4,795 nucleotides of DNA from a virus. Its lineage: Duplodnaviria > Heunggongvirae > Uroviricota > Caudoviricetes. The position numbers were made by a program, and so were the translations under genes. The notes under the pieces were generated by a model. It was not told where the DNA came from, searched no databases, and saw only the letters and a list, made by a program, of their open reading frames with translations. The DNA lies in the IMG/VR virus record IMGVR_UViG_2563366961_000005; one strand, given 5' to 3'. The number at the start of each line of letters is the position of its first letter. The stretch's first letter is position 1. Positions 1 through 555 of the stretch are shown one piece after another.

Positions 1-91
1 GCTGTCGTTCTCAAAATCGGTGGAGCTGCATGACAAAGTCATCGGGCATTATCTGAACATAAAACACTATCAATAAGTTGGAGTCATTACC
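1..91 (+). mobile_element. IS1 terminal fragment (IRR end, ending ...GGAGTCATTACC at 91); the rest of the element lies left of the window
   Basis: Sequence recognised from memory as the IS1 right end. Its exact reverse complement recurs at 4701-4791 (91/91 bp, checked by hand). Boundary may be 91 or 92. Confidence 0.88.
2..76 (+). CDS. insB: IS1 transposase InsB, 3' end only (partial)
   Basis: Frame 2 translates to LSFSKSVELHDKVIGHYLNIKHYQ with stop TAA at 74-76, which I recognise as the InsB C-terminus. Upstream part is outside the window. Confidence 0.8.
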   Translation: MSFSKSVELHDKVIGHYLNIKHYQ

Positions 92-105
92 CACGAAGTA
101 AAAGA

Positions 106-555
106 ATGGTTGTACAGAGCAGAACGATAATAAACACGCATCACATTTTAGGTAACACCATGACAAACATCGAACGATTAGAACGCTGTGCTGACATTAT
201 GCGCCGCAGATGGATTTATGACCCTGAAGCGGGTTTATTATTCAGCCGGGAGACAAAAGACGTGATAAAAGGCGGCATGACTCGCAAGGGCCATTTAAAC
301 GTAAGCATTCAGGAAGGTGATTTTAAAGCGACGCTTAGTTATCAAAAAGCCTGCTATGTATACACATACGGCGCTTATGATGAGACGTTATATGAAGTTC
401 ACCACGTGAATATGAACAAACAAGACAACCGCATCAAGAATATTCGCCTGATGCCAAAGGAACAGCACCGCCGGATCCATAAAAACGTCCGCAAACTCAT
501 TCGGCTGGGCCACACTCAATGGCTGCAACCACAAGTAATAGAGGCATCACTATGA
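106..555 (+). CDS. HNH endonuclease, phage type. True start may be ATG 160 (MTNIERL...), giving 132 aa
   Basis: HNH motif EVHHVNMNKQDNRIKNIRLMPKEQHRRIH (His-His, Asn, Asn, His...His) preceded by the RW...DPE.G.L segment typical of phage HNH_3-like proteins. The frame is open back to position 34 inside IS1, so the start is uncertain. Confidence 0.72.
   Translation: MVVQSRTIINTHHILGNTMTNIERLERCADIMRRRWIYDPEAGLLFSRETKDVIKGGMTRKGHLNVSIQEGDFKATLSYQKACYVYTYGAYDETLYEVHHVNMNKQDNRIKNIRLMPKEQHRRIHKNVRKLIRLGHTQWLQPQVIEASL

Follow-up and report, generated by a model that had tools for sequence, protein, structure and literature searches.

In the 4,795-nt stretch of DNA analysed here (hereafter the window), a piece of an element of the CPZ-55 family has very probably been struck by a copy of IS1 that entered a small HTH gene, leaving the HNH gene behind it intact from its ATG at position 160 and cut off from its likely promoter. 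The window both starts and ends in IS1, and the two copies turn their IRR ends towards an enclosed segment of 4.6 kb (92-4700) that carries ten ORFs, all of them co-oriented. The left copy is represented by its 3' (IRR) end (1-91, + strand, with the insB sense strand also +) and the right copy by the same end in inverted orientation (4701-4795, - strand), the reverse complement of window 1-92. With stubs of nearly equal length (91 nt and 95 nt), the window looks like a contig from short reads that broke off in a collapsed repeat.

Between the two copies, all on the + strand, lie the end of the HTH gene (92-130, frame 2), a native intergenic spacer holding the HNH ribosome-binding site (131-159, as seen in a nine-locus alignment), the HNH endonuclease gene of 131 aa (160-555), and a run of co-oriented downstream genes of the same element (623-3652), whose order is the same in L001-L011, the eleven loci from which homologues for the start-site question were drawn. 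This run includes five small ORFs of unknown function that have no family matches, an Sf6-like small terminase gene (2414-2830) and an HK97 gp10/tail-completion-like gene (3206-3652), both named from profile matches, with another ORF of unknown function between them (2830-3234), and it is followed by a truncated tape-measure gene (3662-4705) that retains 347 of ~729 codons and ends at a TAA (4703-4705) inside the right IS1. In addition, ORF 953-1399 contains a 36-nt tandem repeat (1214-1302, 2.5 copies, 84% matching) that encodes roughly FEGELDDFTRQY / FDGELDDFTRQY / FDGDD in a protein without a family match.

The interrupted HTH gene and the start of HNH

The identity of the window's ends is straightforward, as 1-91 and 4701-4795 match, at 100% identity, the IRR end of the complete IS1 copy carried by three sister loci (L004-L006), and frame 2 of 2-76 translates to LSFSKSVELHDKVIGHYLNIKHYQ* (codons at 2-73, stop TAA at 74-76), which is the InsB C-terminus of the complete IS1 in a related genome; the same stretch is annotated as an IS1A family transposase in E. 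coli RefSeq records. Homology to the IS1-free relatives begins exactly at 92. The upstream HTH gene is intact in L004-L006, and in L005 it is a 58-aa ORF (6293-6469, MKAITLEQFAKMANVSTRTLRRWLKK...HEVKEWLYRAER*) whose end lies 29 nt short of the HNH start; IS1 entered at the equivalent of L005 6430/6431, in codon 46/47 of this gene, and what the window retains of it is the last 12 codons, HEVKEWLYRAER, with the stop. The 58-aa protein matches phrog_66, 'excisionase and transcriptional regulator' (E = 5.5e-7), and TIGR01764, HTH_17 and MerR also match it, all below their curated cut-offs for this allele, while the L001 allele does pass HTH_17 (27.8 vs a cut-off of 27.0); the Phage_AlpA profile gave no match to the split gene, which I would call excisionase-like, a putative small HTH regulator of the excisionase/AlpA kind. 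IS1 thus split the gene upstream of HNH and left the HNH gene itself untouched. The first-pass annotation had the HNH gene directly abutting IS1, and it is indeed near, but the wording is slightly loose, since 68 nt separate the IS1 end from the HNH start, made up of the 39-nt remnant of the upstream gene and the 29-nt native spacer.

That annotation had pointed to a frame open from 34 to 555, to the IS1 end at 91, to two candidate ATGs (106 and 160) and to an HNH domain, and all of these are present: after a TGA at 31-33, frame 1 meets no further stop until 553-555, with ATG 106 as its first ATG/GTG/TTG and ATG 160 as its next ATG. Its further proposal, that IS1 had replaced the 5' region of the HNH gene, does not survive comparison with intact HNH homologues, all of which, among those examined, start at the ATG equivalent to 160. 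For this HNH allele, seven of seven homologues (three IS1-free sisters included) are 131 aa long and begin MTNIERL; L010, which has a different HNH allele of 178 aa, starts at the same position, and L007 and L008 show no alternative HNH start. Also, four loci (L001, L002, L003 and L011) carry an in-frame TAA three codons 5' of the HNH ATG, and the 131-159 spacer contains 1- and 2-nt indels among the homologues (alignment of nine loci), non-triplet changes which indicate that it is non-coding. Gene calls on the identical DNA of L004-L006 give the 131-aa HNH protein, and dN/dS reckoned from the ATG 160 start is 0.08-0.15 against five homologues, as would be expected of a gene under purifying selection from that codon onwards. 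The alignment fixes the native HNH start, by every sequence measure applied, at ATG 160.

The product of this gene is a member of the HNH_3 family and a predicted nuclease. The HNH_3 profile (PF13392) matches at 34.6 bits (cut-off 24.8, E = 1.5e-8) over residues 96-123 of the 149-aa ORF that would begin at ATG 106, which places the domain (VHHVN...DNRIKN...EQHRRIH) in the C-terminal half of the protein, and seven PHROG HNH families match as well (best E = 7.5e-10). The motif VHH(V/I)N...QDNRIKN...HR.IH is retained in all six aligned 131-aa homologues, and the 131-aa homologues carry the annotation 'HNH endonuclease'. A PDB sequence search with the HNH protein returned nothing significant, and NCBIfam has no family for HNH or the other window ORFs. 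A search for related loci with the HNH protein in species representatives gave two loci, and the diversity used here came from E. coli genomes.

One could imagine that translation of HNH nonetheless begins at ATG 106, yielding 149 aa with 18 extra residues at the N-terminus (positions 106-159), or even within IS1, yielding a longer product, given that the frame is open, that ATG 106 is present and that the in-frame stop of other relatives is missing here. However, there is no in-frame ATG, GTG or TTG in 34-105, so none falls within the IS1 part of the frame, and ATG 106 itself has no Shine-Dalgarno sequence (anti-SD pairing of -0.9 kcal/mol, compared with -3.7 before ATG 160 and -5.6 to -6.9 in other relatives). 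It also sits within the frame-2 end of another gene (92-130), being nothing other than the ...GA ATG G... of the HTH gene's Glu-Trp codons read in another frame, and the extension that it would add overlaps that remnant and the indel-bearing spacer. The identical DNA is called as 131 aa, and exact-protein look-ups found no 149-aa product on record, nor the 51-aa minus-strand ORF that spans the junction. The peptide MVVQSRTIINTHHILGNT would be the mark of a 149-aa product, one whose existence I consider essentially refuted, the extension being spurious and its probability next to nil.

Nor does the open frame call for a special explanation. A run of 42 stop-free codons 5' of ATG 160 has P ~0.07 from base composition, and 21% of all 42-codon windows are open across the six frames of this window. 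In the IS1-free sisters the same frame is already open for 59 codons upstream of HNH, so the openness is older than IS1 and was not made by it. Upstream openness is confined to the lineage that comprises the window and L004-L006; its spacer reads TTTTAGGT--AACACC, as against TTTGAGGTAAAACATC, and it is by chance, through this 2-nt difference, that a long frame extends back into IS1. A fusion of InsB to HNH was considered and rejected, as insB lies in frame 2 and stops at 74-76 and HNH lies in frame 1, and a frame open into an IS is shown here to be no evidence of fusion. For annotation this means an HNH gene of 131 aa from 160, a gene remnant at 92-130 and no call for the 149-aa ORF.

Two further observations concern this neighbourhood. 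Within 145-159 the window and L004-L006 share a degraded Shine-Dalgarno sequence (TAGGT for GAGGT) in a spacer 2 nt shorter (-3.7 vs ~-6.9 kcal/mol), and HNH may have been drifting to lower expression before IS1 arrived. Furthermore, comparison of L001 5811-6435 with window 92-555 shows an HNH gene only 78% identical beside a different allele of the upstream HTH gene, the two sequences being 97% identical over the whole of 123-4700; L009 has the same HTH and HNH allele pair as L001, and in L010 (5071-5607) an unrelated 178-aa HNH_3 gene occupies the same slot. The HTH and HNH pair appears to behave as an exchangeable cassette at a mosaic boundary.

Promoters on either side of the junction

The IS1-free relatives have just 29-30 nt between the HTH gene and HNH, and the homologues do start at ATG 160, but no promoter-like site conserved across both allele types accompanies that start downstream of the position equivalent to 92. 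A conserved promoter-like site does occur ~115 nt 5' of the HTH gene, ATGTCA-17-TAAAAT (TATAAT in L007) with repeated TGTCAA motifs, and together with the leader that follows it is common to six loci (L005, at 6150-6290, L002, L003, L007, L010 and L011). In this leader a long GC-rich hairpin (CCGCCxCCAGG...CCTGGGGGCGG) and then a T-run stand immediately ahead of the HTH gene's ribosome-binding site, and the hairpin shows compensatory stem changes in L007; Rfam, run on the window and L005, gave no family. The arrangement looks like a regulated terminator or leader, and it lies outside the window.

From this layout I infer that HNH would normally be co-transcribed with the upstream HTH gene from the conserved promoter/leader ~115-250 nt further upstream, the two genes, and probably the next ORFs, forming one transcription unit. 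The IS1 insertion would then cut HNH off from its likely native promoter, and transcription of HNH and the next genes would most likely be reduced to leakage from IS1, whether as weak insAB' read-through or from a poor hybrid promoter. The suggestion that IS1 had replaced both the native promoter and the 5' region of HNH therefore divides: the promoter has probably been displaced, given the conserved promoter-like site upstream of the HTH gene, but the 5' region is intact. Further along the block, the 124 nt that separate ORF 1763-1930 from ORF 2055-2330 contain a strong terminator-like hairpin on the minus strand (1941-1961), with 9 pairs, of which 6 are GC, and a T-run; no minus-strand gene is evident near it, the same palindrome on the + strand follows the stop of ORF 1763-1930, and it may split the block into two transcription units.

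The first-pass annotation had also raised the prospect that expression of HNH and the downstream genes now depends on IS1, for which no support was found. IS1 insertions are classically polar in both orientations, as in the IS1 mutations of gal and lac, and the element's own promoter is weak and autorepressed, all of which weighs against a reading where IS1 supplies the promoter (through its IRR -35 and a fortuitous -10, or by insAB' read-through) and expression of HNH and downstream genes is IS1-dependent, maybe even enhanced or constitutive. As in known IS1 hybrid promoters and polar IS1 mutations, the IS1 end here, with its outward -35-like hexamer (TTGGAG, 78-83), lies 68 nt 5' of a gene in the same orientation. 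The native promoter has probably been displaced. Since insB and HNH run in the same direction and no + strand terminator is predicted in 1-160, some read-through is plausible, and low-level IS1 read-through into HNH is possible. IS1 is known to form hybrid promoters from its outward -35 when a well-placed -10 is available (PMC8764528, citing Prentki 1986), and in ST131 it raised afaA in this way, but it lowered osmB and had no effect on ugd, where a suitable -10 was lacking (PMC8764528).

In contrast to the hybrid promoters described for IS1 (Prentki et al. 1986) and for afaA in ST131 (PMC8764528), the window has no adequate -10 at 16-18 nt from the IS1 -35. A + strand promoter scan of 1-700 found none at the threshold of 9/12, and a relaxed scan, exhaustive across the junction, gave as its best pairs TTGGAG(78-83)-18-AAGAAT and TTGGAG-15-TAAAAG, each 7/12 with a suboptimal spacer. 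Also unlike in hybrid promoters, IS1 here interrupts an upstream gene of the operon and not a promoter region, and the lineage also has a weakened ribosome-binding site in front of HNH. A -10-like GATAAT at 126-131 and weak -35/-10 pairs do exist, and an internal promoter downstream of the IS1 end is possible. Taken together, I regard an IS1-supplied promoter as quite unlikely, and the insertion would most likely have abolished or strongly reduced HNH transcription rather than activated it from IS1.

A CPZ-55 element between two IS1 copies

Megablast against complete E. coli genomes places the IS1-free segment in elements that lie between eutB and eutA beside intZ. This integration, next to the IntZ integrase, is found in the sister loci L004-L006 and in L001 and L009-L011; the window itself ends in IS1 on both sides. 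The closest relatives, L004-L006, are 99.92-99.98% identical to window 92-4795 and have the same right IS1 junction and no left IS1, and an exact-protein look-up of the truncated tape-measure product returned these three loci. The maeB gene in L005 matches that of several E. coli strains at 100% identity, which makes E. coli the host. The segment at 92-4700 is, judging by these alignments, an internal piece of a CPZ-55-family element of this species. As with K-12 CPZ-55 (intZ, yffL-yffS), the relatives of the segment occupy the same eutB/eutA site and have intZ, and the small terminase protein is 53% identical to K-12 YffO over 135 aa (E = 7e-35), with the C-terminus of K-12 YffM matching ORF 2055-2330 in part. 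The remaining window ORFs have no K-12 counterpart, and K-12 CPZ-55 (6.8 kb), unlike the segment, is without HNH, gp10-like and tape-measure genes. The window would derive from a fuller CPZ-55 form of ~12 kb that has since been cut down by two IS1 copies.

The right copy can be placed with some detail. Its junction (window 4700/4701; L005 11039-11810) is common to many assemblies, the tape-measure product being indexed in 168 blocks, and L004-L006 have the identical truncated product and junction, whereas the full-length homologue in L001 has 729 aa. The right IS1 has no 9-bp target duplication, its flanks in L005 being different (ACGCGGCGG and CACAAAGCG), and its IRL end adjoins a 107-aa BMC-domain (eutS-like) gene that is followed by maeB, which together indicate a deletion at this IS1. 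The right IS1 would thus go with the loss of the element's distal half and, going by the K-12 gene order, with that of eutA through eutP, and ethanolamine utilisation has presumably been lost in the lineage. The right IS1 appears to be old and common to close relatives, and the left IS1 newer and strain-specific. Among 5,426 complete E. coli genomes, 200-nt megablast searches found none that spans the left junction or the right one, and an exact 38-mer across the left junction had no match in 185,579 species-representative genomes.

IS1 typically produces a target-site duplication of 9 bp that flanks a simple insertion. The left IS1 could have arisen as such an insertion with its IRR towards HNH, which would leave a 9-bp duplication of CACGAAGTA, or from the right IS1, already in place, through an intramolecular duplicative inversion into the HTH gene; either event would give just the structure observed, in which both IRR ends face the segment. 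Recombination between the two inverted copies would turn either arrangement into the other. Inverted IS1 arms are also known from Tn1681, a composite transposon, and the window, in which two inverted copies bracket the segment and nothing is seen beyond them, might likewise be read as a composite transposon carrying the HNH-to-tape-measure block as cargo, with 91/92 as the transposon boundary. However, the right junction is the same as in the sisters, where the eutB-side context is native; the plasmid and phage collections searched contain no copy of the segment beyond a 320-nt plasmid match of 83%, which speaks against a known phage as well, no E. coli genome among the 5,426 complete ones has these junctions elsewhere, and the cargo is truncated and looks functionless. 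A composite transposon is therefore very improbable, and the insertion into an element resident at eutB/eutA remains the preferred reading.

A satellite-like gene set

The full-length form of the element is represented by L001 (2640-14860), where ~12 kb lie between eutB and eutA with an integrase, a xis-like HTH gene, HNH, a small terminase, a tail-completion/gp10-like gene and a tape-measure protein of 729 aa that gives a full-length match to phrog_1538; weak matches to Cor-like (E = 6e-4) and anti-repressor-like (best E = 8e-6) proteins are also seen in full-length elements. Strain CEA106S (NZ_CP166722.1) is one example of a carrier of a full-length element. No capsid, portal or large terminase was detected in the full-length relative examined (L001), and the window likewise has no large terminase. 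On gene content the full-length CPZ-55 set is satellite-like. It could be proposed that the HNH-to-tape-measure block serves as the hijacking module in a family of helper-dependent phage satellites not yet described, of which the ~12-kb CPZ-55 form would be the full-length member, normally switched via the promoter/leader before the xis-like gene and uncoupled here by IS1, leaving at most weak constitutive transcription. I offer this as a tentative and, for now, doubtful idea; in the literature searched no paper ties CPZ-55 to satellites and none describes a satellite with this gene set.

A packaging function for HNH is possible by analogy. Packaging HNH proteins of the HK97 gp74 type are encoded adjacent to the terminase genes of cos phages and act with the large terminase, and HK97 gp74 is itself reportedly a packaging-associated HNH protein. 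The protein studied here is similarly a small HNH protein of a phage-derived element, encoded in one block with an Sf6-like small terminase, and might act in DNA packaging with it. In contrast to HK97 gp74, its gene stands 1.9 kb from the terminase and not adjacent to it, and it matches HNH_3 (PF13392) and has no detectable solved structure.

A separate observation from the same block is that the heptamer GTTAGCG occurs four times on the + strand (2057-2063, 2342-2348, 2353-2359 and 2396-2402), with a variant, CTTAGCG, at 2365-2371. Four copies compare with 0.43 expected, and 0 of 200 shuffles reached four; three of them and the variant cluster in the 83-nt gap just 5' of the small terminase gene. 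These are candidate binding repeats for terminase (pac/cos) or for a regulator.

The insertion matters little in itself, being one more IS1 hit in a crippled cryptic element of an IS1-active E. coli lineage, an ordinary IS insertion into an element that had already decayed. The IS1-free sister genomes, with GCA_964046385.1 and GCA_958313665.1 as examples of the L005/L006 type, would be natural controls for measuring IS1 polarity or read-out at the junction, and the satellite-like gene set of the CPZ-55 family is a more interesting lead than the IS1 hit itself.
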